From assembly GCA_964581465.1 (NCBI GenBank), contig CAZOOP010000004.1, forward strand, positions 7,459 through 71,458: 64,000 bases of DNA, written 5' to 3'. This document shows positions 2,007-64,000 of this stretch, one piece after another (the first letter of the stretch is position 1; each line of letters opens with the position of its first letter). Made by a program: the position numbers and the translations under genes. Under the pieces are notes generated by a model. It did not search any database. It was not told the origin of the DNA and was given only the letters and a program-made list of their open reading frames with translations. Source of the DNA: an uncultured bacterium (GTDB lineage: Bacteria; RBG-13-66-14).

Positions 2007-2063
2007 GATACGGCGGATCGCCGCCGGCGGTCCAGATTACCCTTAGCGAAAGGAATCGGGGAG

Positions 2064-3141: not shown

Positions 3142-3184
3142 TTGTTTTGAGATTGCTAGCGGAAACGGGATTTATGCGATCCAG

Positions 3185-3757: not shown

Positions 3758-3823
3758 GCACCTCGATCGTCACGATTGATCGCGGAGGGGTATTATAGGC
3801 CAGCCGGGGCGGTTTTGGCAAGG

Positions 3824-4015: not shown

Positions 4016-4069
4016 TAACCTACAATGAAAAGCACGGGTGGTGCGAAAAGTGAAATCGGGCTTTTCTTT

Positions 4070-4607: not shown

Positions 4608-4798
4608 TTTTTTTATATGTGGGTCCAAGGTGTCTGTATCCAGTCCCGGTGAGTTTGCGGCAGAGGGTGGAGCCGGGCCGTATTGCGCTGGACTGAGCGC
4701 TGTGATACCATACATGGACCGTGAACACTCTATGAGATAGATTGGTCGTCTTTTCTCGTTTTACTTACTGAATAATTACCTTGTGGAGCGAACGCCTC

Positions 4799-28337: not shown

Positions 28338-31112
28338 TCAGTAATTCCAGCCGATGTAGAAGCCGAATTCGGCGTCGCGCTCGACGGAGTTGAAGTCGGT
28401 CAGCCAGGCCAGGTCGAAGCGCAGGGCCAGGTAGGGTCCCAGGCCGACACGGAATCCGACGCCGAAGTCGCCGACGGGATCGGGCACTGTCTCTTCGGCG
28501 TTCCAGGTGGCGCCGACGTCGAAGAACAGCGCTCCCTGGACCTCGTAGAAGGTCAGGTCGCCGACGGGCAGCCCCAGGGCGATGTAGTCGAGCAGGGGGA
28601 AGCGCCACTCGAGGTTGCCCATGTAGAGCCGGGTGCCGGAGAAGTGGCCGTAGGGGTAGCCGCGCATGGTCATGGCGCCGCCGAAGTAGGCCCGGCGGGC
28701 GTCGTCGCCTTCGGCGAGGCGGCCGACGGCGCGGGCGGCCAGGGTTGTGCGTCGGCTGGTTCGCAGGTAGTAGCGCAGGTCGCCCCAAAGGGTATAGTAG
28801 GAGCTGCGCCCGGCGGTCAGGTCGAAGGTCTGGCCGGCCTGGAGGTTGACCCGCATACCGTCGATGGGGCCGATCATGTCCCAGAGGGTGGTGTCGTAGA
28901 CGAAGCCCAGGTAGGCCGAGCCGAGGAAGCGGTTGGTCCAGAACTCGCCGATGTAGTCGTAGCGTTCGCTGCGACGCAGCACCAGGTTGCTTTCCAGGCG
29001 GGTGTAGCGGCTGAAGGGGTAGGAGACCACGCCGACGCCGCCGTATCGTCGCTCGAAGTAGGGCACTTGGGTGGAGTAGTCCAGGTAGTCGTCGACGTAG
29101 TGGAAGGCTCCGGTGCCCCAGTTGAGGCGGTTCTCGAGGTTGAGGTAGGTTGCGGCGACGTTGAAGTACTCGAAGAAGCTGGCCGTCGAGCTGCCGGCGG
29201 AGTAGAGCTGGAGGATGATCCGCTGGTCGCCGGTGAGGTCGGTCAACGCCAGGGCGGTGCCCAGACCGGCGCCGAACTCGGGATCGTAGGCGGTGTCGGC
29301 GCGAACGACGTCCAGGGTGAACTCGGTCCGGTACTCTTCGAGGGTGGTGTCGACGGTGCGCGGTGTGGAATCGACGAGGAGGGTCCCGGTGGTCTCGCCT
29401 TCGGTTTCAGCGCTGACGATCTCGGTGTTTTCAGGGAGTTCGTCGACCAGATAGACGGCGAAGTTATGTCCGATCAGACCCTCGCAAAGCAGCTCGCCCC
29501 GGGGGGTGAACTCGCCCCGGAAGGCTCCGGAGAACAGCGAGGTCAGTTGGACCAGCCCGCCGTCGTCTCCGAGACGGAAGAGGTCGCGGGCGCCGCCGCG
29601 ATCGGAGAAGAAGTGCAGTCGTCCCGCCGAGTCGTAGAAGGGCGCCCGGTCTCGTCGGGGACCTGTAGTTAGTTGTTCCGGCGCACCGCCGTCTGGATCG
29701 AGGCGCCAGAGGTTGAGCCGCTCGTCGTACTCGCCGGCGGCGCGGTTGGAGGCGAAGATGATCCCGCCGTCGGGGGTGAAGACCGGATCGGTCTCATAGA
29801 AGTAGTCATCGGTCAGGCGCTGGACCCGCCAGTCGGGCAGATCGACCAGGTAGAGATCGCTGCGGCCGGATTCGTCCAGCCCGACGACGACCAGACCCTC
29901 GGGACCCCAGCTCGGTGAGGACAGGCTGACCACGCCGGGTAGGCCGCGGCGTTCGAGGACCTCGTCGCTGTCCAGGTCGTAGATGATCAGCTCGTCGCCC
30001 TGGCCGGAGCGGGCGGAGAAGGCCACCCGGCCGGAGTCGTCGACGTCGAGGGCGCTGGTGAACATGTGCAGCGACTCGAGGCTGGGGTTGCGACCGGCGG
30101 TAAGCAACAGCTCACCGTCGTTATCACCGCGCAGGGGCGCCCAATAGAGGGCCTGATAGCCGTAGTAGTTGGAGAGATAGCAATAGCCGGGCTCACCGTC
30201 GCGTTCGGCGTAGGCCGGGGCCAGGGCGGTTTCCTCCTCCCGGGTCAGCCGAGCGCCGACCTCGTCCAGGCTGCGCCGCTCGACGATCTCGGGGAAGTAG
30301 CGCCGCTGGACCCAGCGTCGCCAGTCCTCGTCCAGTTGCTCGAAGGTGATCCCCAGCACGTCCTCGATGACGTCCTCGAAGTACTTGCTCTTGTAGCAGC
30401 CGCGCTGGAGCTCGACCAGGGCCGTCTCGCCGAAGCGCTCGGCGATGTAGAGGACGGCCGACTGGCCCTCCTTGTAGAGGATGAAGTAGGAGCCGAGGCC
30501 CACTAGGGAGCGCAGGGGGCGCAGGCGGTCCTCGAGGACTAGATCGCGCATGTAGACCGCCAGCTCCGCCGAGTCGCCGTCGGAGAAGTACTCGGCCAGA
30601 CCCTCGGAGAACCAGAGGTGGGGCTGGGTGAAGTTGCCCGTTCCCCGGGCGACGATCTCGTCGCGCATCATGTCGAAGGCGAAGACGTGGACCAGCTCGT
30701 GGGTCAGCGTCGAAGAGAAGACTGACAGATCGCCGTTGTTGGGCATCACCACGCGGCCCTTGCGGTACTCGGTGAAGCCGCCGACGGACTCGGGCAGCAT
30801 GATATCCACGGTGTTGGTCTGCTGGAAGCTGGGTCCGTTGGCGTAGAGGAATAGGGGGATGCGGCGGTGGATCACGTGGCCCAGGCGCAGCGAGAGCTCA
30901 TCGAAGGCGGCCTCGGCCAGGGCGGCGGTGCGCTCGGCCAGTTCCCGCTCCTCGGGGTAGAAGTGGATGTCGAAGTGCTCGCTGGCCAGCACCCGCCAGT
31001 CGAAGTCGCGGTAGGCGACCTTGTTCTTGCCGAAGGTGGAGAAACCCGCCGCGGGCAACGCGGGCAGCAGGAGAACGATGATGATCAGTCTGGCGGTGAG
31101 TTTCTGCCTCAT
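28338..31112 (-). CDS. Outer-membrane fusion protein: HExxH peptidase-like + PD40/TolB-like beta-propeller + Omp85 barrel
   Basis: Signal peptide, then LTHELVHVF. Repeated Tol-type blades (DPVFTPDGGIIFASNR). C-terminal Omp85 signature GGAMTMRGYPYG...FFDVGATW...FGFYIGWNY. Confidence 0.85.
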   Translation of the reverse strand: MRQKLTARLIIIVLLLPALPAAGFSTFGKNKVAYRDFDWRVLASEHFDIHFYPEERELAERTAALAEAAFDELSLRLGHVIHRRIPLFLYANGPSFQQTNTVDIMLPESVGGFTEYRKGRVVMPNNGDLSVFSSTLTHELVHVFAFDMMRDEIVARGTGNFTQPHLWFSEGLAEYFSDGDSAELAVYMRDLVLEDRLRPLRSLVGLGSYFILYKEGQSAVLYIAERFGETALVELQRGCYKSKYFEDVIEDVLGITFEQLDEDWRRWVQRRYFPEIVERRSLDEVGARLTREEETALAPAYAERDGEPGYCYLSNYYGYQALYWAPLRGDNDGELLLTAGRNPSLESLHMFTSALDVDDSGRVAFSARSGQGDELIIYDLDSDEVLERRGLPGVVSLSSPSWGPEGLVVVGLDESGRSDLYLVDLPDWRVQRLTDDYFYETDPVFTPDGGIIFASNRAAGEYDERLNLWRLDPDGGAPEQLTTGPRRDRAPFYDSAGRLHFFSDRGGARDLFRLGDDGGLVQLTSLFSGAFRGEFTPRGELLCEGLIGHNFAVYLVDELPENTEIVSAETEGETTGTLLVDSTPRTVDTTLEEYRTEFTLDVVRADTAYDPEFGAGLGTALALTDLTGDQRIILQLYSAGSSTASFFEYFNVAATYLNLENRLNWGTGAFHYVDDYLDYSTQVPYFERRYGGVGVVSYPFSRYTRLESNLVLRRSERYDYIGEFWTNRFLGSAYLGFVYDTTLWDMIGPIDGMRVNLQAGQTFDLTAGRSSYYTLWGDLRYYLRTSRRTTLAARAVGRLAEGDDARRAYFGGAMTMRGYPYGHFSGTRLYMGNLEWRFPLLDYIALGLPVGDLTFYEVQGALFFDVGATWNAEETVPDPVGDFGVGFRVGLGPYLALRFDLAWLTDFNSVERDAEFGFYIGWNY

Positions 31113-31164
31113 GGCTTCCGGGGGCGACTGTGACGGTTTTTATCCCGTGGGGGAGAGGATTTCG

Positions 31165-32236
31165 GGATGGCATCGTATACCCTCTTCGGACCCGACTATG
31201 ATTGTATTTTGTTGATAATAGGGGTGATGATTATCGGATACCTGTCACAAAGCGGGCAGTTGAAAAGTGTCAATTATTGCGGGACTGATCCTTGACGATC
31301 CTTTCTATCCTAGATATCAGCGGACTTGTAACTGCCCTGGCAGCAGATTGCCACAGAATCCTAAGTGTCATAATATCAATCAATAAGGGTTTGCCAAATG
31401 AGCGCTTGCTTCTAGAAGGCGTATTTCAGGGGGTCAATAACGGCCCGGCAGACCGATCCCAATCAGCCTGATTTGGTCCGAACACGTTCCATGATGACTA
31501 CGGGATTAACATAGCACGAAAAGCGTCGCCTGGCGAGGGACGGGGTGGATTTACGGACTTGTCGGCCGAATGTCCCGTGCAATGAGCTCAGAGAAGTGCG
31601 CTCAAGGCAGTCGGCAAGATCTCTACGACTGGGCGACGGCCGGGGGCCTCTGAGCTGAAAGCCCTCAACGCTGCCGATGTGCTACAACAGTGGACGGCGG
31701 GGTGGCGCATGGCGCCGCATACGCATCAGAGTTCGGCTTCTTGGCCGTGTAAAGCTGGTGTGAGCTGCTGTTGGGATGGCGCACTCGCCTGCGTTGAGTA
31801 ACGTTTCTTCAATCAGCATAGCTGGAAGGCGACTCTTCGCCAACTCGTACAAGCGCACGCCCCTCGGCCCCGAGGCAATCCAGCTTGGTTTTACCAACCG
31901 TTGATATCACAAGAAACTGGACCATTATTTGTAACCATGGATAGCTGCATCGAACAGGAGGCTCTGATAAATGCTCGGCGGGAATCGTCAACTCGTGAGG
32001 CTTATCAGTTGTTACCGGTTCTAAACCATTCAATAGCATACTTTTAGCATGTAACTCACTATCAGTTTCAAAAACCTTTGGGCGGGACCTACAGGCTCCA
32101 GCTTCATGCAACACTATGTACAAGGCGAGGTTGATTGCAATAAATCGGCGGTATGTTATTGGAGTCTAAGTATTCTATCAAGCATTGATTGACAATCTAT
32201 TAGCGAGTAGTGCCGGTCTACAACGAGTGATAATCC
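31165..32236 (+). mobile_element. Repeat family B, long copy carrying decayed minus-strand ORFs
   Basis: Begins with the family B blocks and ends CGAGTGATAATCC, the reverse complement of the GGATTATCACTCG end. About 650 nt of extra lower-GC DNA holds the frame-broken ORFs 31682-31897 and 31809-32123. Confidence 0.55.
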
Positions 32237-38727: not shown

Positions 38728-39814
38728 TTGTCAATCACCCCTCGAACCGCCGACGGGGCCGGTAGGCCCAACCGGGCGGCGGATCGGTTCAATTGTAAAC
38801 GCCAGCGGACGCGCCGCTTGAGAACGGCGAATCCGGGGCTCTTATAGTCAGTTACGCTGGAGGGTTCCGCGGCGTTTCAACGGCCGGGCGGCCGCCATTG
38901 CGCGGGGAGGGCGAGGTGATCGAGGCGGGCTTGGCGCGGATTGCGGATGTACGGCTAAGCGCGACTATCGAGTACTCTTACTGGGCGGTTGACCGGTTAT
39001 TCCGTGCTGGAAACGGGGCTTCGGGCAAACCGGGTTTTCTCTGATAGGGTCCTTGTTTGTCACAGTCCGGGTATATGATTGCCTCGTCTGCGGACTGATC
39101 GTCAAGGCTCAGAAAGGTGCTGATCGATACTTACCCTTGAGATCCGCCTGATAATAATCGCCGATGCCCAAATAAAACCGGGCGACGCCTTAGCCGGGTT
39201 AGTGGGGTCGGGGCATCCGGTGGCAAGAAACAACAGAGAAATGGTGTTCGCAAAGCATCATATGGTCGCCCCGAAGGCGTTGAGTTGTCGCTTCTCGACT
39301 TGACGATACGCCTGGCCGTATTTTGGGGCCGTTTGCGGTTACACCACGATTCGCGTAATCGTCGAGTCGGATCCGGCCGCAAGCCTGTTTCACGCGGTTG
39401 GGCCGCGCCCCACCGAGGTATGATCACCCTTCATCTCGCCGCCGCAATGCAAGGCTCGGTGCGGCATCTGTTTGGTCGGTATCGACTCCGCCGACCGAAC
39501 CGCAGCGGGGTGAACCCGGTGCTGTTCGAGGGCGCCCCGGATTGCAACATTGAGAAATGTACTACCTCACAGCGTGCATACGGTAGCATAAAAAGGGGTC
39601 GCAAGCAAGGTGTTTTTGCTCTATCGGCTTTATTCACAAGCTGTTGCGATAATGTTGAGTTTGTGGGTGTAAAATCCGGTCTCGGACCTATGTCAATTAT
39701 TGTATTCTATATTTGCCTGTGGTACGATTAATATAAATTGCATTCGGATAGGTGCATTATTCTTTCAGGATTGCATTTATTATTGTGCATAATATATTGC
39801 AGTGGGGGTTTGCC

Positions 39815-40459
39815 TTGATCAAGGCCGTCATCTTCGACATGGACGGGGTCATTGTCGATTCCGAGCCGCTTCAGTACGAAGCCTACAACGAGGTTTTCAC
39901 CGCCCACGGGGCCGCCATTACCAAGCGCGAGTTTATCGAGCTTTGGGTCGGGCGGGGTAGCAAGCTCCACGAGCACATCGCCAGGCACGGTCTCGGTGTT
40001 GGTTTGGAGGAGGTTCGGCTCTCAAAGAAAATGATCTACGATAGGTTGGTGCGGGAAAAGATGCAGCTGCGCTCCGGTGTGCTGGGGCTGATCAAGCGGT
40101 TGAGCCGTGAAATGAAAACGGCCCTGGCCTCCAGCGCCCATCCCGATTCCGTCGAGGTCGTGCTGGAACGCTTCGATCTGCGCGGGCTCTTCGATGTCAT
40201 CCTCACCGGCGGCGATGTCGAGCATAACAAACCCCACCCCGAGATCTACCTTAAGGCCGCCGAGCGGTTGAAGGTCAAACCCGCCGAATGCCTGGTTTTC
40301 GAAGATTCGGCCTCGGGGATCGCCGCGGCCAAGGACGCCGGGATGCGCGTGATAGCCCTGCCCCACGAGTATACGATCTCCCAGGACCTCTCCCGGGCCG
40401 ATCTGATCATCACCGATCTGCGCAACCTGCGGCTGCGGCTGAAGATCAACCGCGGCTGA
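39815..40459 (+). CDS. HAD-superfamily hydrolase, subfamily IA (beta-phosphoglucomutase-like)
   Basis: Motif I is IKAVIFDMDGVIVDSE. Later motifs are HNKPHPEIY and VFEDSASGIAAAKDAGM. TTG 39815 is preferred over GTG 39752. Confidence 0.85.
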   Translation: MIKAVIFDMDGVIVDSEPLQYEAYNEVFTAHGAAITKREFIELWVGRGSKLHEHIARHGLGVGLEEVRLSKKMIYDRLVREKMQLRSGVLGLIKRLSREMKTALASSAHPDSVEVVLERFDLRGLFDVILTGGDVEHNKPHPEIYLKAAERLKVKPAECLVFEDSASGIAAAKDAGMRVIALPHEYTISQDLSRADLIITDLRNLRLRLKINRG

Positions 40460-46999: not shown

Positions 47000-47950
47000 G
47001 GCTGCCGGGGTAAAAAACACGGCATTTTAGTGTAGAATAATGGCGCTTGCTTCTTTTCCCATGTAACTGGAATAGGAATATAGTCTCCGCCGGGTGGGCT
47101 GTCAAGAACTTTTTACACGGCTACACACCTTTCTTGATGACCCGGGGGATAACATTCATAATTCGAGCGGATCCTAGCGGGCCGGATAGAAAGGCATACT
47201 TTTATTGAGCCAATATAGTATATAAAATCATTTATAATTGTATTATCATCCGAAACAAAACCAAAAATTCAAGACAATGAGCGGCAGTTAAAGCGGAAGT
47301 GCTAACGACTGCCTCACAAATACTCTAACTCGATAAAAAAAGTTGTCTTATCTGAAAAGGATTCTAATTATAAGCATGTAGCCTCCTTAAGCTCTGAATC
47401 CCGAGTTGTGTCAGCAGTCAAGTCTACTTGAAGCTCAGTGTCCTCTTCGAGCGAGTCTGGTTTTCTGAAACCAGGTAACACTCGGACAAAGACAGCTTGC
47501 ACAGCTAAAAGGCACGCAACAACAAACCATTAGCGATACATGCCTTTTCATGAACGTGTGATAATCTCTAACAATATGTATATCAGCCTATAGATCGAGG
47601 TAGATGTAAAACTATCGAGACGGCTTTATTAAGTAAGGATTTTATTGTTAACAAAAACACTTTATCATGACCAATTATCATTAGGAAAAAATGACAATAA
47701 TGCTATAGTTCTGGCTAATCGCCATACTTTTAATGGTCGATTGTGCGTAAAAGCCTTGACTTGCTATGGTGTTGCTAAAGGCTGTCGTTATTGACCTATG
47801 GTTCGATAGCCAGTATGGTTAAATTACACTGTATACTATTGCATACTTATCAGCTATAACAACCGCTTGCCTTATTGAGTTGAAGCATGGAAATGAGATG
47901 TGCAATATCGCTCTCATTGCTGTGAGATTATCAACGGGCAAGCCGGCGGA
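47000..47950. other. AT-rich ORF-free island
   Basis: No ORF of 60 aa or more in any frame between 47025 and 47819. The base composition is far more AT-rich than the flanks. A possible sigma-70 promoter, TTGACC-17-TATGGT near 47795-47825, faces tadA. Confidence 0.6.
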
Positions 47951-48511: not shown

Positions 48512-49035
48512 TGCAAGGCAGCATGCAATCTGAGCGGAACGGCGGCTGTTGGGGAGCGGTTGGCCGGAGCGCAACGCCACCCGGGAAGTGCCCGCCCGTG
48601 GTAGAGCGCGCGCCGCGAACACCCTTGCTGACCGTCAGAAAGTCACTTACAGGCCAAGAAATGGTTGCCCTCAGGTATGGATCGAGGAATGCCGGTAGCG
48701 GACCATATCCCCCAGCTCGCGCTTCCCTTTCCCGCCACTTTTCCCTAACCGTTTCATGACAGACACCTGTCGTGCGGCAGGTGCATTAAAAGCGGGATAC
48801 GATAATGAAACGGCCCGAACGGGTTATGCGATGTCTCGTGCGCATCAGAAGTTCGGGGCTATCTCCGGCACCCCCGGAGAGCTCATCGAAGCTTGAACGG
48901 TGGGAGATACACCGGGAGCGACATTGCTGCGGCACCGCCCGCCTCGATGCGCCGGGGGACCGCTGTTGATCGCCGCCTGCAACCCTGACGAGGTCTTCGG
49001 TTAGTGAGGGGGATTATGTTCAATGGGAGGACCGT

Positions 49036-49812
49036 GTGGGACTGATCGAGACTAAGCCCGCCGCCCTGGCCCATCTGGGCGAGGTCTGGCGCGAGAGCTT
49101 CGTCATCAAATCCTGGGAGACCGACGCCCGGCGACGCACCCCGGCGCCCCACCTCTTCCGCCTGATGCAGGAGACCGCCTGGCGCCACGCCGAGTGGCTG
49201 CGCATGGGCACCAGCGACTTCACCCGCCAGGGCCTGGGCTGGATCCTCAGCCGCGCCCTCTTCCAGGCCGCCGAATACCCCCGCTGGCGGCAGACCGTCC
49301 ACGTCCATACCTGGATGACTGCCCGCGAGAAGCTGCTCTTCCATCGCGACTTCTGGCTCTGCCTGCCCGACGGAACCGAGGTCGCCCGAGCCTCCTCGGT
49401 CTGGTTCGCCATCGACGCCGCCCGTCGCCGGCCCCGGCGCACCGCCGACTACTCCTCCCACCTCGAGGTCCCCGAGTACCCCACCATCACCGGCCGCCGA
49501 CCCGCCAGGCTCGACCCCCCCGCCGCCGCCGAACCCGCCGCGCGCTTCCGCGTGCGCTACCACGACCTGGACTCCAACGGCCACCTCACCAGCACCCGCT
49601 ACCTGGACTTCCTCCTCGACGCCTTCCCCGCCGAGCTGCAACGGCGGTGCTCCCCGCGCGAGCTGACAATCAACTACCAGGCCGAGGCCCTGCTGGGTGA
49701 AGAGCTGGCCGTGGTGCTCGAGGATCTCGGCGAAGGCCGCCACCGCTGCGCATTGAAAAAACAGGCCCCCGCGAACACGGAGGCCTGTTTAGTTGAGCTG
49801 GAGTGGGGTTAG
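49036..49812 (+). CDS. Acyl-ACP thioesterase family protein
   Basis: Double hot-dog layout. N-terminal VWRESFVIKSWETDARRRTPAPHLFRLMQETAWRHAEWL, second-half VRYHDLDSNGHL. Confidence 0.8.
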   Translation: MGLIETKPAALAHLGEVWRESFVIKSWETDARRRTPAPHLFRLMQETAWRHAEWLRMGTSDFTRQGLGWILSRALFQAAEYPRWRQTVHVHTWMTAREKLLFHRDFWLCLPDGTEVARASSVWFAIDAARRRPRRTADYSSHLEVPEYPTITGRRPARLDPPAAAEPAARFRVRYHDLDSNGHLTSTRYLDFLLDAFPAELQRRCSPRELTINYQAEALLGEELAVVLEDLGEGRHRCALKKQAPANTEACLVELEWG

Positions 49813-50555
49813 GGAGTGAAAGCTAATTGTGCAGCATGATCTTCCAACGCTTGCGGCATCCCGCTGTAGGTCCGACCGTCGAGCAGGCGGCCGGACTTCT
49901 TTTTGCTCATACCGCCCCATTGCTTGAAGAAAAAGGCGGAGCCAGTTTGTTGGCACTTCTCACGAACCTGATAAACCCATTCCTTCCCCATTGGCCGCGA
50001 TCCGGGACCAGATTCGCCGCCAACAATCACCCAATCTATCTCGGTCAAATCAAGATTATCGACGGGGTCGAGCAGAGGTTCCAGGCTGAGGAAGCGTACC
50101 CGGGCCGGGATTTTCTTTAAATAGTCAGCGCGTTGACAGTACTCGTCGCCCTCGATAGTGACACCCATCCAGATGTTGTCGGTACAGTTCAATAACGGTA
50201 CAAGTTCGGCCATCCTCTTGGCTCGTTTCGTTAGTACTTGGAAGATATGACGCGGAGTCTGGTTCATCACCTGGAAAACACTCTTGATAAAAGCAAAAGG
50301 GACGTCCTCGTGGAAGAGATCGCCCATCGAACAGGTGAAGATGACATGGGGTTTCTTCCAGGCGCAGGGCCGGTTGAGCTCGTCCTGATGGACCGTCACC
50401 CGGAAGCCGTTACGATACTTTTCCTGCCCCATAGCCTGTAGGCGCTTGGCCAAGCGTTCGGCGTAGCAGTGCTCGCAGCCTCGGCTGATCCGGGTGCAGC
50501 CGGTTACCGGGTTCCAGGTGGCACTGGTCCACTCGATGTGTGAGTTTTCAGCCAT
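49809..50555 (-). CDS. Gp37/Gp68-family (DUF5131) three-Cys-motif protein
   Basis: Starts MAENSHIEWTSATWNPVTGCTRISRGCEHCYAE. Later motifs are FLSLEPLL and IDWVIVGGESG. Its ATG overlaps the upstream stop (TGATG). Confidence 0.85.
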   Translation of the reverse strand: MAENSHIEWTSATWNPVTGCTRISRGCEHCYAERLAKRLQAMGQEKYRNGFRVTVHQDELNRPCAWKKPHVIFTCSMGDLFHEDVPFAFIKSVFQVMNQTPRHIFQVLTKRAKRMAELVPLLNCTDNIWMGVTIEGDEYCQRADYLKKIPARVRFLSLEPLLDPVDNLDLTEIDWVIVGGESGPGSRPMGKEWVYQVREKCQQTGSAFFFKQWGGMSKKKSGRLLDGRTYSGMPQALEDHAAQLAFTP

Positions 50556-51367
50556 CAGTAACGCCTTTTCTTAAAGATATCTGTAATGATTTTGCCTGCA
50601 ACATCAACTGGAGAGGCAAAAAATAAGTAATAAATAACAGCTCCCCTACTATTAAGCATAGGTTTTGGGGATGGTACCTTTTTAAAACCAGCTATATTTT
50701 TTAATCTTTCGCGAAATTCTTTTACAATTACTTCCGTTTTCTTTTTAGTTTTATATTCATCAACAATAAATGTTTGTTGTGAAGTGTCATATAAAACATC
50801 AAGCCAGGTATCATCACCCCCGGCTCTATTCATTCTTTCTTTTTTGTCTTCGGGTAAACGGTTCGGATTAATCCATAATGCATTTCTATGAATATCCATC
50901 ACAGGAAAATGAATAAATAACTCTATTGCTTTTTGTTTTCCCGCTAACTCAATTACTTCCCATTCGATATCTAAGCCATACGGATCTAGTACACATAGTG
51001 CTCTGTGGCCTGAGTTATAATTTATTTTAGGAAATATTTCTTTTAAGATATCATTGCAGTTACCCTGTTTGATAACTACATCGTCTCGTATTCCTATAAT
51101 ATCTTGTAAATGATCAACCTTATCGCTTTTCAAATCTATGAATAAATAACGATCGAATGGAGGTACTATATCCAGTGCATGTAATGGACTGCCCTTAACA
51201 AAACTTCCATCGCTTCGTTTGATGTGCATACCAGCGCCAGCAAATGCGTCAATATAATACTTACTAAAGCCTTTTTTGTTTAGTATTGTTGTATATACAT
51301 GTGCATACTCTTTTATTATATCATGTTTTGTTATCGTCCAATTGCTAACTTCATCGAATTCTAGCAT
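50555..51367 (-). CDS. TcmP-like (three-Cys-motif partner) protein with a methyltransferase-like fold
   Basis: AGGAGGAGG lies before ATG 51367. Contains YIDAFAGAG (a DxFxGxG-like motif I) and VLDPYG. It is strongly AT-rich relative to the genome. Confidence 0.8.
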   Translation of the reverse strand: MLEFDEVSNWTITKHDIIKEYAHVYTTILNKKGFSKYYIDAFAGAGMHIKRSDGSFVKGSPLHALDIVPPFDRYLFIDLKSDKVDHLQDIIGIRDDVVIKQGNCNDILKEIFPKINYNSGHRALCVLDPYGLDIEWEVIELAGKQKAIELFIHFPVMDIHRNALWINPNRLPEDKKERMNRAGGDDTWLDVLYDTSQQTFIVDEYKTKKKTEVIVKEFRERLKNIAGFKKVPSPKPMLNSRGAVIYYLFFASPVDVAGKIITDIFKKRRY

Positions 51368-51406
51368 ATTCCTCCTCCTACTCAAGTCTATCTCGTCCCT
51401 ATGACA

Positions 51407-54259
51407 TCAAAACTCCCATGCAATTGAAAAGTGGAATTTGGCGTCCTCGAAGTCCCGGCCGTTCCACGGCCAGGCCCAGTCGAAGCGCAGCGGCAGCCCC
51501 AGCGAATCCCAGCGCAGACCCATCCCGATCGAGGCCTTGAGGTCGACGAAGTGGAAGTTGGGCTCGTTGGTCCAGAGTTGGAGGTTGGTGAAGTCGATCT
51601 CGCGGTCGATGTTGTCCCAGGCCAACCCGGCGTCGATGAAGCCCACGCCGCGGAAGTTCCCCAGGATGAAGCCGGGCAGGAAGCCGAAGTCGATGCGGTC
51701 GACCAGGGGCAGACGCAGCTCGAGGTTGGCGAAGGCGACGTTGTTGCCGACGAACTCGGTGTAGTCGTAGCCGCGCAGGTCGAGGGCGCCGCCGAGGTAG
51801 GTGTCGGGGTCGTAGGGGTCGCCCCCGAAGCCGAAGCCGGAGTAGACGCGCAGGGCGAAGCCGGCGGTGCTGTAGAGGTTGAGGTAGCCGCGGAAGTCCA
51901 GGGAGAGATAGTTGTACTCCCAGTCCGAGCCCATGAATGCGCTGGGGCGCTGGTAGCCCAGGTTGAGCCGGATGCCGCGCACGGGGAAGGTGTAGTACCA
52001 CTCGGTGCTGTCGAAGACCAGGCTGGCGCCGGGACCGATGACGCTGCGGTAATCGGCGAAGATCGAGCCGTCGTAGAAGTAGTATTGGCGGCCTTGCTCG
52101 TAGCCGGTGATGTTGGCGTCGACGCGCAGCTCCTCGGTGAAGGGGTAGCTGAAGGTCAGTTGGCCGCCGGAGAGGCGCTCCCAGAAGTAGCCGTCGGGGA
52201 AGAGGTAGTAGTCCTTCCAGGTGAAGGCCCGAGCGCCGTAGGTCGGCCGGTGCTTCATCCAGTAGTAGGCGACGTCGAGGTCGAGATCGTCCAGGCTGGA
52301 AACGCTGGTCAGGCCGAACTGGACGAAGAGGCGGTGGTCGCCCAGGGTGTCGGAGCCGATGATCAGGCCCAGGGCGCGGAAGGCGCCGCCGGTGGTGTAC
52401 TCGGCCTGGGCCATCCCGGCGTCTATCTCGAGGTCGTACTCCCAGGGCTCGAGGGTGCCGATCTTGGAGAGGTCGCCGACCTCGAAGCCGGTGCGGATGG
52501 GCGGGTCGTAGTAGCCCTCGAGGGCCAGGGAGTCCAGGGCGGCGTCGAAGGGTTCGTCGACGGCGAGGTCGAGGTCCATGATGTGGACCTGGTGGGTCAT
52601 CTGCTGGTAGGAGTTGAAGGCGATCTGCGTTCCGTCGGCGGCGACGTCGGGGTTGTAGACGTCGCGCAGGGAGTCGGTGAGCTGGACGATCGAGCCGTCG
52701 CGGCGGTCGAAACAGAAGATGTTCGAGGGGCCGACGCGGTCGGAGCTGAAGACGATGCGCTCGCCGTCGGGGTGGTAATCGGGGTAGCGGTCCTCGTTGG
52801 GTCCGGCGGTCAGCACAGTTGTTTCGCCGCTGTCGAGGTCGAGCTCGGCCAGGTGGACGCCGTCTTCCTCTTCGAGGGCGAAGGCCAGGCGTTCGCCGTC
52901 GGGGGAGGCCACGGGGTGGGCCTCGAGGTGGGGCGAGTCGGTCAGGCGTTCGAGGGCGCCGGTGCCGGTGTCCAGGCTGAAGATGTCCACGATGCCGGCG
53001 AGCTGGGCGGTCAGGTAGAGCTCTTCGCCGTCGGCGGAGAAGCAGAGGCCGTCGATGGTGTCCAGGTTCAGTTCGTCGAAGACCCGGTAGACCTCTCCGG
53101 TGACGACATCGATCAGGTAGATGCCCTGCCAGCGGTCGTCCTTGGCTATCACGGCCAGGGTGTCGCCGGCGGGGTCGAAGGCCACGCTGCGCGCCGAGGG
53201 ACTCAAGTAGTCGAAATCCCCCGTCGAGGTCAGTCGGGCGAACTGGCGTCCCTCCTTGGCGTCCAGCAGGTAGAGGTGGGCGCCGCGGTCCAGATTGGCG
53301 ATCACGGCCACCAAGTCCCCCGAGGGGGACAGACGTGGGCCGAGGAAGCTGTGGTACTCGTCGCCGCCGTCGGTGATTCGCCGGCTGAAATCCTCGGGGC
53401 GGCGGCCCTCGACCAGGTCGACCCAGAAGCGGCGCTTGAGGTGGATCGTCCACTCCTCGGTGAACTCGTCGAGGTCCTTGTCGATGACCTGCTCGAGGGC
53501 TTCGGAGACGCTGCGGCTGTCGGTGCGCGCGACGGCCCTGATCAGCTCGGGCAGCTTGTCCTCGCCGTAGCGCTCGACGAAGAAATCCACGGCGCTGTGG
53601 CCTTCCTTGTAGGCCAGGTAGAGCAGATAACCCGGGATGTAGGCGCCGTTGCGAAAGTACTCCAGCGGGACGATGTTGTCGGAGAGCACCGCGTCGCGCA
53701 GCACCATGCGGGCGTCGGTGTCCCACTGTCGGGCCTCGTGGGAGGGCAGGCCCTCCATGAACCAGAAGTCCGGCGTGCCGATCTGGTTGGAGAGCAGCTC
53801 GCCGGTGACGTCGCGGAAGAAGCTGTAGAAGTTGAAGACATGGGTCAGCTCGTGGACGATGACCTCGTACATCAAGGGCTGGGAGCCCTCGTAGGGGATG
53901 ACGATGCGGTTGCGCAGCGGTTCGGAGAAACCACCCACACCCTCGGGAAGGTAGCTAAGCGTGATGTTGGTCTGGCGGAAGTCGCGCTGGGAGTTGTAGA
54001 GGATGAAGGGGATCCGGTCGGTGGGCTCGTTGCCCAGGTCCTCGCGCAACTGCTTCCAGGCGGCCTCGGCCATCTCGGCCACCACGCCGACGACCTCCTC
54101 GCCGTCACCGTAGAAGTAGACGTCGAAGTGCTCCGTGGCCAGGATACGCCAGTGCATCTCGGTGTCGCGCACCTTGTTCGAGCCGAAGGCCCCGTACTGG
54201 GCGAGGGAGGCGACGGCTGGAATCATCAGCAGGATGACTGCGCGGTGTGTCGTTTTCAC
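51407..54259 (-). CDS. Outer-membrane fusion protein: HExxH peptidase-like + PD40/TolB-like beta-propeller + Omp85 barrel (paralog of 28338-31112)
   Basis: Signal MKTTHRAVILLMIPAVASLA, then VHELTHVF. PD40-like blades (YPDYHPDGERIVFSSDR). Omp85 C-terminus LRGYDY...FIDAGLAW...FHFSIAWEF. Confidence 0.85.
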   Translation of the reverse strand: MKTTHRAVILLMIPAVASLAQYGAFGSNKVRDTEMHWRILATEHFDVYFYGDGEEVVGVVAEMAEAAWKQLREDLGNEPTDRIPFILYNSQRDFRQTNITLSYLPEGVGGFSEPLRNRIVIPYEGSQPLMYEVIVHELTHVFNFYSFFRDVTGELLSNQIGTPDFWFMEGLPSHEARQWDTDARMVLRDAVLSDNIVPLEYFRNGAYIPGYLLYLAYKEGHSAVDFFVERYGEDKLPELIRAVARTDSRSVSEALEQVIDKDLDEFTEEWTIHLKRRFWVDLVEGRRPEDFSRRITDGGDEYHSFLGPRLSPSGDLVAVIANLDRGAHLYLLDAKEGRQFARLTSTGDFDYLSPSARSVAFDPAGDTLAVIAKDDRWQGIYLIDVVTGEVYRVFDELNLDTIDGLCFSADGEELYLTAQLAGIVDIFSLDTGTGALERLTDSPHLEAHPVASPDGERLAFALEEEDGVHLAELDLDSGETTVLTAGPNEDRYPDYHPDGERIVFSSDRVGPSNIFCFDRRDGSIVQLTDSLRDVYNPDVAADGTQIAFNSYQQMTHQVHIMDLDLAVDEPFDAALDSLALEGYYDPPIRTGFEVGDLSKIGTLEPWEYDLEIDAGMAQAEYTTGGAFRALGLIIGSDTLGDHRLFVQFGLTSVSSLDDLDLDVAYYWMKHRPTYGARAFTWKDYYLFPDGYFWERLSGGQLTFSYPFTEELRVDANITGYEQGRQYYFYDGSIFADYRSVIGPGASLVFDSTEWYYTFPVRGIRLNLGYQRPSAFMGSDWEYNYLSLDFRGYLNLYSTAGFALRVYSGFGFGGDPYDPDTYLGGALDLRGYDYTEFVGNNVAFANLELRLPLVDRIDFGFLPGFILGNFRGVGFIDAGLAWDNIDREIDFTNLQLWTNEPNFHFVDLKASIGMGLRWDSLGLPLRFDWAWPWNGRDFEDAKFHFSIAWEF

Positions 54260-59565: not shown

Positions 59566-60214
59566 CTAGAACAGGCCGAAGGCCCCCAGCTCGATATCGA
59601 CGAACTCCAGCCGGACCGGCTCGGTATCCACCCGGTGGTAGACGCCCTCAAGAAAGACTCCCAGCATGCCCAGGGCGCCGAACTGGATTCCGCCGCCGAT
59701 GTTGAAACCCCACCGTGCGCCGTCCTCGAGCCTCCCGGCATCGTAAGCGGCGTCGTAGGACGGGTAGCCGAGCAGGTACAGCCCACCGCCCAGGCAGAGG
59801 TAGGGCGACAGCGACGCCGGGTACATCACCCGGGCCTGGAGGTAGATCGGGGCGATGCTCAGCCCCGTTGTCTCGGCAAGACGTCTTCCTCGCCGGCGTA
59901 GTCAACGTCTTGCAGGGCGGGGGCGGCGTACACGACGTTGAGCGAGAGGTCGGCCGGGATGTCGATCACCCAGCCCAGGCGCAGACCGCCGGCGAGGTCG
60001 CCCCGGCTCTCGGCACCGTAATACCCAACCGGGGCGAGGTAGCCCAGCCGGGCTCCCAGGGTGAAGAAGGGCGGCTCGGTGAAGTCGCCGATATCGTAGG
60101 CCTGACGGCGGAGATTCCTATGATTCCTATGACGAGCAGGGTCAGCAGGGTTGCGAGTCCGAGACCCGGGCCGGGCAGTCTGCCGCAACGCTGGTGCATT
60201 TTGGCGGGTTGCAT
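59566..60214 (-). pseudogene. Small outer-membrane beta-barrel protein gene broken over three frames
   Basis: The signal peptide (frame of 59966-60214), central strands (59859-60275 frame) and C-terminal strands ending ELGAFGLF (59566-59829) are in different frames. This is either true decay or assembly indels. Confidence 0.5.
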
Positions 60215-60622
60215 CGTTTTTTCTCCGTAAAAAAGGGTTGAGGTAAAAATATATCCTTGCCAAGGGGGATTTCACTATCTAATATGATAACTGTAAAAGA
60301 AGGTGTGGGTTTTTTCGATACCCTCGTTATTACTCGTTGCTTATTGCCGCTCCTCGCTGTCACTCACTGACGCTCGCTGGATCACGGTTTGAAAACATCT
60401 TCTGAGCCTGCCGTCGGCGGGATCCGCCGAAATGAGCCAACGGAGCGCGATTCTGCGTTTAATCCAGCCCGTGATGACCAGACGAAGAAGACTGCCCGCC
60501 TTGATTACCCAGTGTAGCGCAGATTTTTTCCAGGGGCGGCCCGACAACGGATGAGAACCATCTTCGCAGAAGACGGCCCCGGCTCAGTGTTGATCAAACG
60601 ATCTAGATACCAAACGGGAGGT

Positions 60623-60955
60623 ATGGAGATGGCCAAGCCGATGGGCGCCACGATCGCCGAGGACTGCCGGTACTTGCTGGCCGTGCTGATCCAGCAGGGC
60701 TACACTCTGGACGAGATCGCCACGGGCTGCCGCGACAGCGTGGAACTGATCAAGGATATCTGGATGAGCACCGGATACGATGAGCGCGGCGAGCGCCTGT
60801 ATCTGGATCTCGAGTCCCTGGTCCGCCACAACAGCTTCCTGCCGAGGATGAAGAAGATGCTGCAGCAGGGGATGCATCTTCACGAGCGTATGGGCGATGA
60901 GGTCTGGAACGATCCCCAACGCCGCCGGCAGTGGCTCGAAGAGCATAGCGAATAA
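60623..60955 (+). CDS. Small HTH-like protein, CRY-motif family member A
   Basis: GGGAGG lies before the ATGs at 60623/60629. Motifs are EDCRYLLAVLIQQGYTLDEIA, IKDIWMSTGY and ERMGDEVWNDPQRRRQWLEEHS. Confidence 0.75.
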   Translation: MEMAKPMGATIAEDCRYLLAVLIQQGYTLDEIATGCRDSVELIKDIWMSTGYDERGERLYLDLESLVRHNSFLPRMKKMLQQGMHLHERMGDEVWNDPQRRRQWLEEHSE

Positions 60956-61195
60956 TCCACCGAACTGGAACACATATTCCGGGATGGGGTGGACATATCC
61001 CCGGCCAATCGACTTGCATTGTCAACTGTGGGTGGACTGGGTGGCTTGTCATTCCGCGGCCTTTATCTTATTCTAGTTGCACGGCGCGGCCGGTGAAGCG
61101 CATCCCGATATCCCGACCGGCCGACACGTAGCGGACTTCGACAACGACGATAACAACGGCCCGCACGCTCAAGGCGGGTTGAGGCAAGGAGGACC

Positions 61196-61522
61196 ATGGA
61201 GGTCGTCAATCGACCGACCAGCTCGCAGGAGTGTCGCTACTTCATCGCAGCGATGATGAAGCGCGGCTTCAGTCTTTCCCAGATCTCGCGGATGAGCGGC
61301 AACAGCAAGTCCGACGTGCGTTCGGTCTGGCGATCCAACGAGTACAGCCCCCAGGCCCACGAACTCAACATCGGCTTCAGCACCCTGGCCGACGGCGACG
61401 ACGAGCTGCCGACCTACGTCGCTCTCATCGAGGAGGGCAAGGAGCTGTCCGAGCAGATGGGTCGCGACAACTGGCTGACTTATCGCGTCCGCGAAAAGTG
61501 GATCGAGAAGCACAGCGATTAG
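61196..61522 (+). CDS. Small HTH-like protein, CRY-motif family member B
   Basis: AAGGAGG lies before the ATG. Motifs are QECRYFIAAMMKRGFSLSQIS, VRSVWRSNEY and EQMGRDNWLTYRVREKWIEKHS. Confidence 0.75.
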   Translation: MEVVNRPTSSQECRYFIAAMMKRGFSLSQISRMSGNSKSDVRSVWRSNEYSPQAHELNIGFSTLADGDDELPTYVALIEEGKELSEQMGRDNWLTYRVREKWIEKHSD

Positions 61523-61728
61523 GCGTTACGGGACCGATAAGTCGAACCGGTGGGCCGCCGTGGACAACGGCGGCTCTGTTTCCAGCCGTGTGATTCCCGA
61601 TTCGCCGGCGCCGAGGGCCGTTGGGATGGGCGACGTTCCGCCCCGCTTTTCTTATGTTGCCTTCGAATGTGTAACAAGCTGTTTGGGTTCGATTATCTCG
61701 TCACTTATAGCTCCAGTAATTAATCCTT

Positions 61729-62084
61729 GGGATCACACACGATCCCGGGCCAGACCACTCCAACTCGAAACGTCGATCCCCTCAGGAAAAGCGGCTGAGA
61801 CGAGGTTAAGCTGAATCAAGTTGAGCCTGCAACCTTATCCCTACGGTGCTCACTTATTAAATGCTTGTTAATAGATTGCTTGGGATAGATGCGTCGTCAT
61901 CGAGGCCAACGGCTTAAAGCAGTTTATTAGCGTGTAGTGACGTCACTACGGGCATCCCAAGCATATGGTCAACCACGTACCTGATACAAGCATCTCGCTC
62001 GATGTGTACTCCTGTTTATAAGCTAACAGCATTTATCCAAATGTTATCCAGTAATGCTGTGGCCCATTGCCGCTTAGTGATCCC
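61729..62084. mobile_element. 356-bp MITE (copy Q), homolog of 42043-42396
   Basis: Terminal inverted repeats GGGATCAC / GTGATCCC. Flanking 8-mers TAATCCTT / TTATCCTA. The internal block GTGACGTCACTACGGGCATCC is shared with copy P. Confidence 0.7.
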
Positions 62085-62492
62085 TTATCCTATTGATGTA
62101 ACACTAATCCAGAAAGAGGACACTGCTTGTTAGTACAAGTATCCAATCAATAGGATATTTCCTAGGCGCATATAATTATACCAAGACAAGTATTAATTAG
62201 AAACAGTACTCTTTACCAGTCGCCATCTTTTGTCGCTCCGTTTACGTACAGGCCAGGGTGGCGTTTCATCCATTCACACGGCGTGTTGAAGGTATTGGCT
62301 GGACACGACTGGATCCAGAATCGCTTTCTTTTACAGCCGGTGCAACCTCGCTGGCCTTTTTCGCCCGATAAGTAGTATTATCCAAGCTGGTTGACTCCGT
62401 CCCGGCGCCCGCCCTGGGCGATGAATCTCCGGGAGTTGGGTTTTACCCACTGACGCCGCCTTTTCGTGCCAGGCTTCTCGGAGGACGATACG

Positions 62493-62819
62493 ATGCCGCG
62501 GAAAAATATATACGATTCCAGCGAGCTGTGCCGCTACTACCTGGCGGCCCTGCTGGCCCGAGGATTCGACCTGAAAGCCATCGCCAAGGGATTGAGCTTC
62601 GGTCGCCGGGAGCTCAAACGCATTTGGATGGACACGGGCTATACCCCGCTGGCCTCCGACGCCACCAGCGAGCTGGGGCGCTTTATCGAGGCGCATCCGG
62701 GGCTGCCCGGACATAAGGACCTTCTCGAGGAGGGCGTGGGTCTGGAGGAGCGCATGGGAGCCGAGGTCTGGAACGATCCCCCGGCCCGTGACGCCTGGCT
62801 CGCCGAGAACGCCGCCTGA
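62493..62819 (+). CDS. Small HTH-like protein, CRY-motif family member C
   Basis: GGAGGA lies 7 nt before ATG 62493. Motifs are ELCRYYLAALLARGFDLKAIA, LKRIWMDTGY and ERMGAEVWNDPPARDAWLAENA. Confidence 0.75.
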   Translation: MPRKNIYDSSELCRYYLAALLARGFDLKAIAKGLSFGRRELKRIWMDTGYTPLASDATSELGRFIEAHPGLPGHKDLLEEGVGLEERMGAEVWNDPPARDAWLAENAA

Positions 62820-62896
62820 GTAAGCAACTGTCTGAACTGGCTTCGGGCTTGTCGCCGGAGCCGTTGTGCTAGCCCTTGTGCTAGGTCGAGGCCGCC

Positions 62897-64000
62897 TTGC
62901 TGATAATCGAAATCAGCGTCATCGCGGTGCTGCTGTTCTTCTCCGCTTTCTTCTCCAGCTCGGAGACGGCGTACTTCTCGCTGTCCTCGGGCCGGCGGGA
63001 GACCATGGAGTCCAGCTCCCGCGCCGGCGAGCGCCGGGCCGCCGGGTTGATCGCCCGCCCCACCGACCTGCTGGTGACCCTGTTGATGGGAAACCTGTTG
63101 GTCAACGTGGCCTCGAGCTCTTTGGCTACGGCGGTTCTGCTGCGCTACATGGACACCGGCGCTCTCGAGTACGCCACCTTGGGGATGACCTTCGTGCTGC
63201 TCATCCTGGGCGAGGTGACCCCCAAGAGCCTGGCCGCCTACCACCCGGTCCGCTGGGCCGTGCGCGCGGGCAGGCTGCTCAACTTCTTCCGGGTGGTCTT
63301 CACCCCGGCGCGCGTTCCGCTGACCCGGCTCTCCCGGCGTTTGATGCGCAAGCTGGCCGAACGCTCCGCCGACGGCGAGTCCCTGACCGTCGATGAGCTG
63401 CGCACCGCCCTCGAGATGGCCCGCGAGCACGGCGAGGTCGATGAGTTCGAGTCGATGATGCTGGGCCAGATCTTCGCACTGGAAGATAAGCGGGTGCGCC
63501 AGATCATGACCCCGGCCTCCGACATAGTCTCGTTGGAGTTGGGCGGGAAACCGGCCGCCGCCCTGGAGATCTTCCGCCGCCACCAGTTCGCCCGACTGCC
63601 CGTCTACCAGGACGAACCGGACAACTGGGTCGGGGTGGTGCGGGCCCAGGACGTCGGTCACGCCGTGCTCTCCGGTCCACCGGCCGACCTGCGTCCCCTG
63701 CTGCGTCCGATCGTTTTCATCCCGGAATCGGCCAGCGCCCTGACCCTGTTGCGACGCCTGCGCGCCGAGGGCTCCCACCTGGCCCTGGTCACCGACGAGT
63801 ACGGCGTGCTGGTCGGCCTGGTCACCCTGCAGGACATCTACGACGAGCTCTACGAGATCGGCGCCCAGCGGGGGAGCAAGCTGCGCCGACTGGGTCCGGA
63901 GCGCTGGGTCTGCGTCGGTTCCCTGGGCCTCGATGACTTCGGCCGGGGCACCGGCGTCGGGATCGCCGACGAGTACTACAGCTCCCTGGGCGGCCACCTG
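62897..64000 (+). CDS. CNNM/CorC-HlyC family transporter (DUF21 + CBS pair), 3' end outside the window
   Basis: My own translation from TTG 62897 gives LLIIEISVIAVLLFFSAFFSSSETAYFSL (DUF21), then the CBS region VRQIMTPASDIVSL...LALVTDEYGVLVGLVTLQDI. It is absent from the track because no stop lies in the window. The long minus ORF 62639-63997 is its shadow. Confidence 0.85.
   Translation, partial: MLIIEISVIAVLLFFSAFFSSSETAYFSLSSGRRETMESSSRAGERRAAGLIARPTDLLVTLLMGNLLVNVASSSLATAVLLRYMDTGALEYATLGMTFVLLILGEVTPKSLAAYHPVRWAVRAGRLLNFFRVVFTPARVPLTRLSRRLMRKLAERSADGESLTVDELRTALEMAREHGEVDEFESMMLGQIFALEDKRVRQIMTPASDIVSLELGGKPAAALEIFRRHQFARLPVYQDEPDNWVGVVRAQDVGHAVLSGPPADLRPLLRPIVFIPESASALTLLRRLRAEGSHLALVTDEYGVLVGLVTLQDIYDELYEIGAQRGSKLRRLGPERWVCVGSLGLDDFGRGTGVGIADEYYSSLGGHL

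Follow-up and report, generated by a model that had tools for sequence, protein, structure and literature searches.

A 64,000-nucleotide stretch of DNA from an uncultured bacterium (contig CAZOOP010000004.1 of assembly GCA_964581465.1, positions 7,459 to 71,458 of the forward strand; hereafter the window) carries a two-gene operon composed of tcmP, which encodes a three-Cys-motif partner protein, and a gene of the DUF5131 (phage Gp37/Gp68) family, the arrangement that PADLOC lists as the phage defense candidate (PDC) PDC-M41. On balance, we consider it probable that the pair entered its present slot in the ancestor of the host clade and has been inherited vertically since, with the DUF5131 protein as the catalytic core and TcmP as a dispensable partner resembling the methyltransferase RlmJ. 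The locus is a further member of an already known pair. What is new here is the structural assignment of the two proteins as RlmJ-like and spore photoproduct lyase (SPL)-like, the independent loss of either partner, and the long life of an AT-rich tcmP under protein-level constraint.

Architecture of the tcmP-DUF5131 pair

Both genes lie on the minus strand, where tcmP (positions 50555-51367, 270 aa counted from its ATG) is followed by the DUF5131 gene (49809-50555, 248 aa). The two are joined by a TGATG stop/start overlap (50553-50557) in which stop and start share base 50555. Upstream, a 39-nt spacer (51368-51406, minus strand) that holds a AGGAGGAGG Shine-Dalgarno sequence at 51371-51379 separates tcmP from the stop codon of a gene encoding an Omp85-fusion protein; an alternative TTG start for tcmP at 51385 is judged unlikely. 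Downstream, the 3' end of the DUF5131 gene overlaps the convergent acyl-acyl carrier protein thioesterase (TE) gene by 4 nt (49809-49812). An earlier sequence-only reading of the window had described both open reading frames (ORFs), the TGATG overlap, the 39-nt spacer and the 4-nt TE overlap, and each of these lies at the coordinates it gave.

An intrinsic-terminator-like hairpin (49756-49790, minus strand) begins 19 nt past the stop codon of DUF5131 and lies within the final codons of the convergent TE gene. It has a 14-bp stem, a 4-nt GUUC loop and a U-run, and the stem closes around a UUCG sequence. The hairpin was missed by a simple terminator scan and later confirmed by RNA folding (ΔG -26.7 kcal/mol, z = -4.3), with none of 200 shuffled sequences as stable. 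A promoter scan found no usable site upstream of the tcmP ATG, and the 39-nt spacer is too short for an independent promoter. Since the spacer holds no promoter-like site, both genes are likely transcribed via read-through from the upstream Omp85-fusion gene. Translation of DUF5131 would be coupled to that of tcmP through the TGATG junction, as had been proposed from the sequence alone and as the shared base 50555 bears out, and the operon would be ended by the strong hairpin. A search of the 44-56 kb part of the window against Rfam (E ≤ 0.1) returned no match.

Predicted folds of the two proteins

The assignment of the upstream gene to the TcmP family is confirmed by the TIGR04474 model, which spans residues 10-268 of 270 (E = 1.1e-56, 192.6 bits against a cutoff of 53), and the PADLOC model PDC-M41A matches at E = 1.1e-64. 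The DAFAGAG motif that the sequence-only reading called methyltransferase-like is present and falls on invariant family columns. In an alignment of 43 homologs, motif I (D40-x-F-x-G-x-G46), the following G59-S-P61 and the motif IV variant D128-P-Y-G131 are all invariant, and D78 and the D103-C-N105 triad are near-invariant (at least 90% of homologs). The window protein keeps all 46 invariant columns and departs from near-invariant ones at G8S, N153H, N160H and W183G; the last of these positions is a tryptophan in the sister strain (L103). At least 1158 TcmP clusters are present in the protein collection. An exact-protein look-up of the window TcmP (P0001) found no gene on record, and PHROG holds no family for it.

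A search of the PDB with a TcmP sequence profile returned nothing, and a fold search and profile-profile alignment were needed instead. For the AlphaFold2 (AF2) model of TcmP (predicted local distance difference test score, pLDDT, 88.5), Foldseek gave RlmJ and a DUF519 relative as top matches (E = 2e-7, template modeling (TM) score 0.55). Alignment of the TcmP profile with E. coli RlmJ by hhalign covered 107 columns (probability 86%, E = 5e-6) and paired YIDAFAGAG with YLDTHAGAG, GSPL with GSPL, and LLDP-YG with LIDPPYE (TcmP and RlmJ, respectively). TcmP does not belong to the RlmJ or DUF519 sequence family, and the similarity is at the profile level alone. From fold and profile together, TcmP is predicted to have a class I S-adenosylmethionine (SAM)-methyltransferase fold and to be a remote relative of the rRNA m6A methyltransferase RlmJ.

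The downstream gene is equally clear at the family level. The three-Cys Gp37/Gp68 (DUF5131) signature that was recognized from the sequence alone is upheld by PF07505, which scores 333 bits (gathering threshold 28.9, E = 1.4e-99) over all 243 model positions (1-243), and PDC-M41B (E = 1.2e-117) and phrog_2045 (E = 8e-94) match as well. The protein contains the three-Cys motif C20-x6-C27-x2-C30, a GGE-type motif (GGESG) at residues 179-183, and C201. C20, C27, C30, G179-G-E-S-G183 and C201 are invariant among 32 homologs, and the N-terminal signature residues I7, E8, W9, T10, W14, N15, P16, G19, C20, C27 and C30 occupy invariant columns and are all present. At least 8000 DUF5131 clusters are present in the protein collection.

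The spacing of the three cysteines is Cx6Cx2C and not the canonical radical-SAM Cx3Cx2C; variant cluster-motif spacings occur among accepted radical SAM members. A PDB sequence profile search returned chance matches only. With the AF2 model (pLDDT 86.5) as the Foldseek query, all of the top six matches were SPL (TM 0.50-0.56), followed by lipoyl synthase, and the best matches (SPL, lipoyl synthase and MiaB) share a partial TIM-barrel radical-SAM fold. RadicalSAM.org places DUF5131 in Megacluster-5-2 of the radical SAM superfamily, with SPL beside it in 5-3 (PMC9477430). By fold, GGE motif and superfamily listing, the DUF5131 protein is predicted to be a variant radical-SAM enzyme.

How might two such proteins act together? 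The best reading is of a two-enzyme module that would modify nucleic acid, as the RlmJ-like and SPL-like folds suggest. An activity directed at nucleic acids is supported because the nearest structural relatives of both proteins act on nucleic acids, and that part of the earlier proposal of a nucleic-acid modification or defense module of phage origin is therefore plausible, whereas its phage origin is not sustained. The catalytic core would be the DUF5131 protein, whose cluster site (Cx6Cx2C) is non-canonical and whose SAM motif is of the GGE type. Because its fold is closest to SPL, we propose that it probably acts on a flipped-out nucleotide of DNA or RNA by means of a 5'-deoxyadenosyl radical. 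TcmP, which keeps its SAM-binding motifs and has DPYG as a variant of the amino-methyltransferase motif DPPY, would probably N-methylate or present a nucleic-acid target shared with DUF5131.

History of the slot in related genomes

The Omp85-fusion protein indicates that the window belongs to a Candidatus Coatesbacteria-like clade, and its relatives were used to follow the slot between the Omp85-fusion and TE genes. In the sister strain (L103, 99.15% nucleotide identity over 5187 nt without gaps) the arrangement is the same as in the window. Its DUF5131 gene carries a TCG to TAG change at codon 186 (S186*) and its TcmP is intact; the tcmP genes of the two strains differ at nine positions, five of which change an amino acid. 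Four JGI samples (L104-L107; Omp85 76% and TE 64% identical) have DUF5131 (72%) in the slot, with the same 4-nt TE overlap as in the window and with a GC content of 0.66 and a third-position GC content (GC3) of 0.87, and they have no tcmP. In its place is a 254-nt AT-rich gap (GC 0.34) without tcmP similarity beyond the ends of the flanking genes.

A more complete arrangement is found in L108 (TE 62%), where an AT-rich ortholog of tcmP (GC 0.33) stands upstream of DUF5131 (74%, GC3 0.84). The identity of this ortholog with the window gene is 72.5% in nucleotides and 72% in amino acids, both copies contain the clade-specific FIHFPV and RLPEDK, and the L108 copy is frameshifted by a 2-nt deletion. 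In L002 (Omp85 62%), the Omp85 stop is immediately followed by a 45-aa ORF in 25%-GC DNA, and the TcmP profile recognizes this ORF (E = 1e-9). Neither tcmP nor DUF5131 is present at any of 78 more distant Omp85-fusion loci.

Between the window and L108, nonsynonymous divergence (dN) amounts to 0.155 for tcmP, 0.174 for DUF5131 and 0.297 for TE, and dN for Omp85 between the window and L104 is 0.16. The ratio of nonsynonymous to synonymous divergence (omega) is 0.17 for tcmP and 0.09-0.22 for DUF5131. The orthologs occupy the same slot and their dN is congruent with that of the neighboring genes, which argues for vertical inheritance. The pair would have entered the slot between the Omp85-fusion and TE genes in the ancestor of the Coatesbacteria-like clade and been passed on vertically after that ancestral entry. 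Within the clade TcmP would be dispensable and repeatedly lost, with DUF5131 persisting alone under purifying selection.

The same slot can hold other genes. In L019 (Omp85 62%), positions 10135-10717 encode a SEC-C-motif protein (MSIESNLCNCGSGKKYEDCC...) in a different AT-rich gene (GC 0.32) that follows the Omp85 fusion, and thus the slot accepts different AT-rich cargo. Contigs of the related metagenome-assembled genomes (MAGs) L001 (whole contig, Omp85 96%) and L002 (9516-9868) terminate at or just past the 3' boundary of the Omp85-fusion gene, at the onset of AT-rich DNA. In L002 the TcmP frame ceases to match after about 35 codons and runs on as 25%-GC sequence. Assembly breaks at the abrupt change in composition, or strain variability, may account for these observations.

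Composition of tcmP and its partner

The sequence-only reading described tcmP as far more AT-rich than anything around it, which is correct: its GC content is 0.335 and its GC3 is 0.247, about 0.65 below the host, where nine genes have GC3 values of 0.78-0.93 and overall GC is about 0.65. A score similar to the codon adaptation index (CAI) is 0.15 for tcmP and 0.51-0.78 for host genes, and host-rare codons make up 44% of tcmP versus 2% of the Omp85-fusion gene. The window DUF5131 gene is intermediate, with a GC content of 0.548 and a GC3 of 0.663. At the base composition of tcmP, 270 codons would be free of stops by chance with a probability of 7e-11, and 9-31 stops occur in each of the other five frames. 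The tcmP ORF is not a chance frame.

Is this composition a trace of recent import? The GC3 of tcmP is 0.25 in the window and 0.28 in L108 even though 52% of synonymous sites differ (pS 0.52), a comparison that covers 116 codons of one partial ortholog (L108), with the 45-aa fragment in L002 beside it. If tcmP had been under the pressure toward about 0.9 that acts on its neighbors, a substantial rise in GC3 would be expected over this divergence, and none is seen, which points to an AT-rich state that is ancestral and at local equilibrium. The AT-richness of tcmP therefore appears to be an ancestral, persistent state and not the mark of a recent transfer. Vertical conservation at native composition, which on the sequence-only account would speak against a recently acquired cassette, was found in both respects for DUF5131; for tcmP, conservation was found and native composition was not.

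The AT-richness of tcmP may be held by selection, for example as an expression throttle via rare codons, or it may reflect an escape from a GC-driving force, for example if biased gene conversion is weaker on genes of variable presence. A bolder joint claim is that the RlmJ-like and SPL-like enzymes together install an undescribed radical-SAM-dependent modification of nucleic acid and that the AT-richness of tcmP is itself selected, such that rare codons gate TcmP, for instance with efficient translation only once AT-adapted tRNAs or an infecting element alter the translation landscape. We regard this combination as a long shot.

The anomaly is not general to the family. At 21 viral loci the GC content of tcmP is below that of its partner in every case, and its GC3 is lower in 16 of the 21 with a median difference of 0.05; in three other bacterial genomes, both genes lie 0.1-0.25 below the flanking GC3. 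The idea that TcmP is systematically far more AT-rich than its partner across the family was rejected on the basis of this small GC3 effect, and the extreme AT-richness of the tcmP described here is thus specific to the clade.

Pairing elsewhere and dependence between the partners

The pairing, which had been put forward as an established co-occurrence, is strongly evident: DUF5131 is adjacent to TcmP at 21 of 21 viral TcmP loci and in six of six bacterial contexts. The same 1-nt tcmP/DUF5131 overlap recurs in unrelated pairs (L112, L113, L114, L116, L117 and L118). On six other bacterial contigs metabolic or housekeeping genes enclose the pair and integrases are absent, and in only one of these contexts (L117) do TIR and STAND genes lie 3 kb away. 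In three of them (L114, L116 and L118, from three metagenomes and another clade) the pair (8001-9667 in each) comes immediately after one and the same acetyl-CoA carboxylase carboxyltransferase gene, with different genes further downstream. This shared placement implies vertical retention among core genes there too.

The relationship is less strict when viewed from the DUF5131 side. When 2.9 million viral contigs were scanned for the two best-conserved TcmP peptide patterns, which does not amount to a full census, only 22 were matched. For DUF5131, at least 597 matches on viral contigs were obtained. Among the best 80 viral DUF5131 loci, 32 have a TcmP-like ORF within 3 kb and about 60% have none. 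On the viral contigs L119-L198, many DUF5131 genes have a convergent TcmP-like ORF of about 280-320 aa immediately downstream, and other loci have a distant TcmP-like ORF of 380-430 aa that is probably PDC-M30A-like. These convergent and distant architectures are unlike the co-directional, overlapping pair of the window.

In an addictive toxin/antidote module the protective partner would never be lost alone. Here DUF5131 occurs without tcmP in L104-L107, and tcmP occurs with a DUF5131 gene interrupted by S186* in L103. These natural single losses, together with the viral DUF5131 genes that lack a TcmP-like neighbor, argue against strict dependence of the toxin/antidote or restriction-modification (R-M) type, and neither gene appears to be an obligate antidote for the other. 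The distribution suggests that DUF5131 is an autonomous catalytic component and TcmP an accessory.

Weighing the alternatives

Several observations weigh against the reading that we favor. A literature search for both families gave incidental mentions only and no biochemical or genetic data, which bears out the earlier description of the pair's function as uncharacterized; PDC-M41 is listed by PADLOC as a candidate. Substrate and chemistry are suggested by fold neighbors with TM scores of about 0.55 and sequence identities of 10-13%, and Pfam assigned no family, including that of RlmJ, to TcmP at E ≤ 0.01. TcmP is without the roughly 35-residue helical insertion of RlmJ, and its motif IV (DPYG) is one proline shorter than the DPPY of RlmJ; motif I is conserved. 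The W183G substitution falls at a near-invariant site and may mean that the window copy of TcmP is impaired. Orthology of tcmP within the clade is argued from a single L108 copy, partial (116 codons) and frameshifted, and from the 45-aa fragment in L002, both of which come from single metagenome contigs in which assembly errors are uncheckable. Lastly, GC3 of the window DUF5131 gene is 0.66 versus 0.84-0.87 in its orthologs, at a synonymous divergence (dS) of 1.3-1.9, and this drop could have arisen through allele replacement from a lower-GC relative; it may also be the onset of the same relaxation as in tcmP.

Four other explanations were considered. A compact cassette of phage origin, recently acquired by horizontal transfer and dropped between core genes, would account for the low GC, the poor CAI-like score and the many host-rare codons of tcmP, for a window DUF5131 gene that is also under host GC, for the PHROG family and viral-contig matches of DUF5131, and for the position of both genes 10-25 GC3 points under their flanks elsewhere. 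Synteny largely refutes this explanation, and we consider it very improbable. Orthologs fill the same slot in L103 and also in L104-L108 and L002, relatives with flanking proteins 62-76% identical to those of the window; the DUF5131 genes of these more distant relatives have native GC; both genes resemble the flanking core genes in dN; and the AT-rich tcmP is common to diverged lineages. No integrase, tRNA, repeat or phage gene lies near the pair, TcmP has no PHROG family, and the scan of viral contigs with two TcmP peptide patterns, not a full census, yielded few matches, so that neither the recent acquisition nor the phage origin proposed from the sequence alone is retained. A second possibility is that the window copy is a decaying relic without current function, its AT-richness and falling GC3 reflecting relaxed selection toward pseudogenization. 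The W183G change, the five amino-acid changes among nine differences from L103, the S186* codon in the sister strain, the frameshift in L108, the deletion of tcmP in L104-L107 and the lowered GC3 of the window DUF5131 gene would all fit such decay. Both ORFs are nonetheless intact, with an open frame of 270 codons at 33% GC that chance would hardly produce, all invariant family residues are kept in both proteins, and omega over the long term amounts to 0.17 (tcmP) and 0.09-0.16 (DUF5131), so we view a relic as unlikely.

The remaining two explanations concern what the pair does. In an anti-phage defense of the R-M kind, TcmP would mark self nucleic acid by methylation and DUF5131 would damage or modify unmarked invader DNA, the two forming an addictive module. 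The strong PDC-M41A and PDC-M41B matches are in line with this, as PDCs were nominated through embedding in defense loci (10.1101/2024.01.29.577857), and in S. meliloti a TcmP gene is co-regulated with Hna, from which it is two genes away (PMC12445080). A compact, coupled, sporadic and GC-poor pair among core genes is also a layout typical of R-M and toxin/antidote modules, and in L117 the pair has TIR and STAND genes at a distance of 3 kb. However, PDCs are candidates by the account of their own source (10.1101/2024.01.29.577857), both single-loss states seen in the clade are incompatible with strict toxin/antidote dependence, and DUF5131 has long been kept without tcmP, under purifying selection and at native GC, in L104-L107. 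Moreover, no defense genes surround the pair here or in five of the six other contexts, and about 60% of the viral DUF5131 loci examined have no TcmP-like neighbor. We therefore hold an addictive defense module to be improbable. Alternatively, the pair might serve a housekeeping role, with DUF5131 as an SPL-like DNA repair or rRNA/tRNA-modifying enzyme and TcmP as an optional RlmJ-like RNA methyltransferase partner. DUF5131 is vertically inherited with host codon usage and purifying selection among core genes next to tadA, a similar vertical retention is seen behind the carboxyltransferase gene in another clade, and structurally the two proteins come nearest to a DNA-repair enzyme and an rRNA methyltransferase. 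Against this role stand the patchy distribution, in which 78 more distant relatives lack the pair at this locus, the nonsense codon in the DUF5131 gene of a sister strain, the abundance of DUF5131 on viral contigs, and the consistently low GC of both genes against their flanks elsewhere, a feature that suits accessory genes. This role is likewise doubtful, and an anciently entered, vertically inherited pair with DUF5131 as its core is the reading that we retain.

These results matter in several respects. The pair is widespread and listed as a defense candidate without an assigned function, and its assignment as an RlmJ-like methyltransferase and an SPL-like radical-SAM protein directs experiments to nucleic-acid substrates. 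DUF5131 can persist alone as a native-looking chromosomal gene, and the single losses of each partner argue against toxin/antidote logic. The locus is also a clean case in which a strong compositional anomaly need not signal recent transfer, which is relevant to programs that call genomic islands or horizontal transfer from GC content.

Genomic surroundings

The genes around the pair encode RNase Y, HAD, ABC-2, GNAT, a tadA-like deaminase, TE, the Omp85 fusion, PSP1, holB and tmk. The neighborhood holds no mobility, phage or defense genes and no integrase or repeat, and the nearest tRNA is 7 kb away. A recently acquired island would show an empty site in relatives together with mobility genes, tRNAs or repeats at its borders, and this combination was not found. 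The co-occurrence with a defense island that the sequence-only reading suggested checking is likewise absent here, where the neighbors are housekeeping genes.

The Omp85-fusion gene (51407-54259, minus strand) encodes a 950-aa protein with a Peptidase_MA_2 domain, TolB/PD40-like beta-propeller repeats and a C-terminal Omp85 barrel. This architecture is conserved at 24-33% identity in MAGs labeled Calditrichota, KSB1, Latescibacterota, Rhodothermales, Gemmatimonadota and several other phyla. About 0.9 kb of AT-rich DNA (47010-47900, GC 0.35-0.42), flanked on one side by GC-rich sequence and on the other by the tadA-like deaminase gene, contains no ORF of at least 60 aa, no repeats and no Rfam match; this stretch may represent the remains of an accessory gene or a regulatory or noncoding RNA region. 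The deaminase and TE genes are separated by a 525-nt spacer (48512-49035, GC 0.60-0.65) without an Rfam match, which shows the highest density of single-nucleotide differences from L103 (9 in 525 nt); in L104 and L105 the two genes overlap. The notion that neutral DNA in this genome is AT-rich fits the 47.0-47.9 kb region and the gap in L104, but the spacer at 48512-49035, with 60-65% GC, speaks against it and the notion is not established. Positions 1-5000, 31001-32000, 39001-40000 and 60001-63000 have a GC content of 0.53-0.57, below the value of about 0.65 that is typical of the window.

Comparison with known systems

The best structural match to TcmP is RlmJ (DUF519; PDB 4blv and 6qdx), the E. 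coli methyltransferase that forms m6A2030 in 23S rRNA. The two share motif I (hAGAG), GSPL after beta-2/3 and an acidic-Pro-aromatic motif IV at the end of beta-4. They differ in that identity is 12-13% with no Pfam-level match, and in that RlmJ works by itself, whereas TcmP always has a radical-SAM protein as its partner. The DUF5131 protein and SPL (a radical SAM DNA repair enzyme; PDB 4fhc and related) have in common the partial TIM-barrel radical-SAM core and membership of Megacluster-5. Unlike SPL, DUF5131 has a Cx6Cx2C motif in place of Cx3Cx2C and is about 90 residues shorter, and the two are 10-11% identical. There is no evidence for a role of DUF5131 in photoproduct repair.

Among named families, DUF5131 matches TIGR04471 (radical SAM mobile pair protein A) below threshold (E = 5e-23), and membership was rejected, as its score of 81.7 is far below the cutoff of 355. 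PDC systems are 145 phage defense candidates with homologs embedded in Hma, BREX, DISARM or type I R-M loci ("guilt-by-embedding") (10.1101/2024.01.29.577857), and those of the PDC-M series are the multi-gene ones. The DUF5131 protein also matches PDC-M30B (6e-114) and TcmP weakly matches the longer PDC-M30A (1.5e-8), and M41 is favored over M30 because the A component scores 1e-64 for the former versus 1.5e-8 for the latter. Both components of PDC-M41 (M41A and M41B) are present and adjacent in the window. As in other pairs of TcmP and PF07505, tcmP precedes its partner on a shared strand and the stop and start codons overlap by 1 nt, and the hidden Markov model scores are far above threshold. 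The window tcmP is nevertheless the most divergent of the set, with its nearest homolog outside the clade 53% identical, whereas DUF5131 shares 62-65% identity with that of other pairs, and this tcmP encodes W183G. Its GC3 lies 0.65 under that of the host, against a gap to the flanks of 0.1-0.25 in three other genomes and a median difference of 0.05 at the 21 viral loci. The pair also stands apart from the others in its vertical inheritance and in the independent loss of its partners within the clade.

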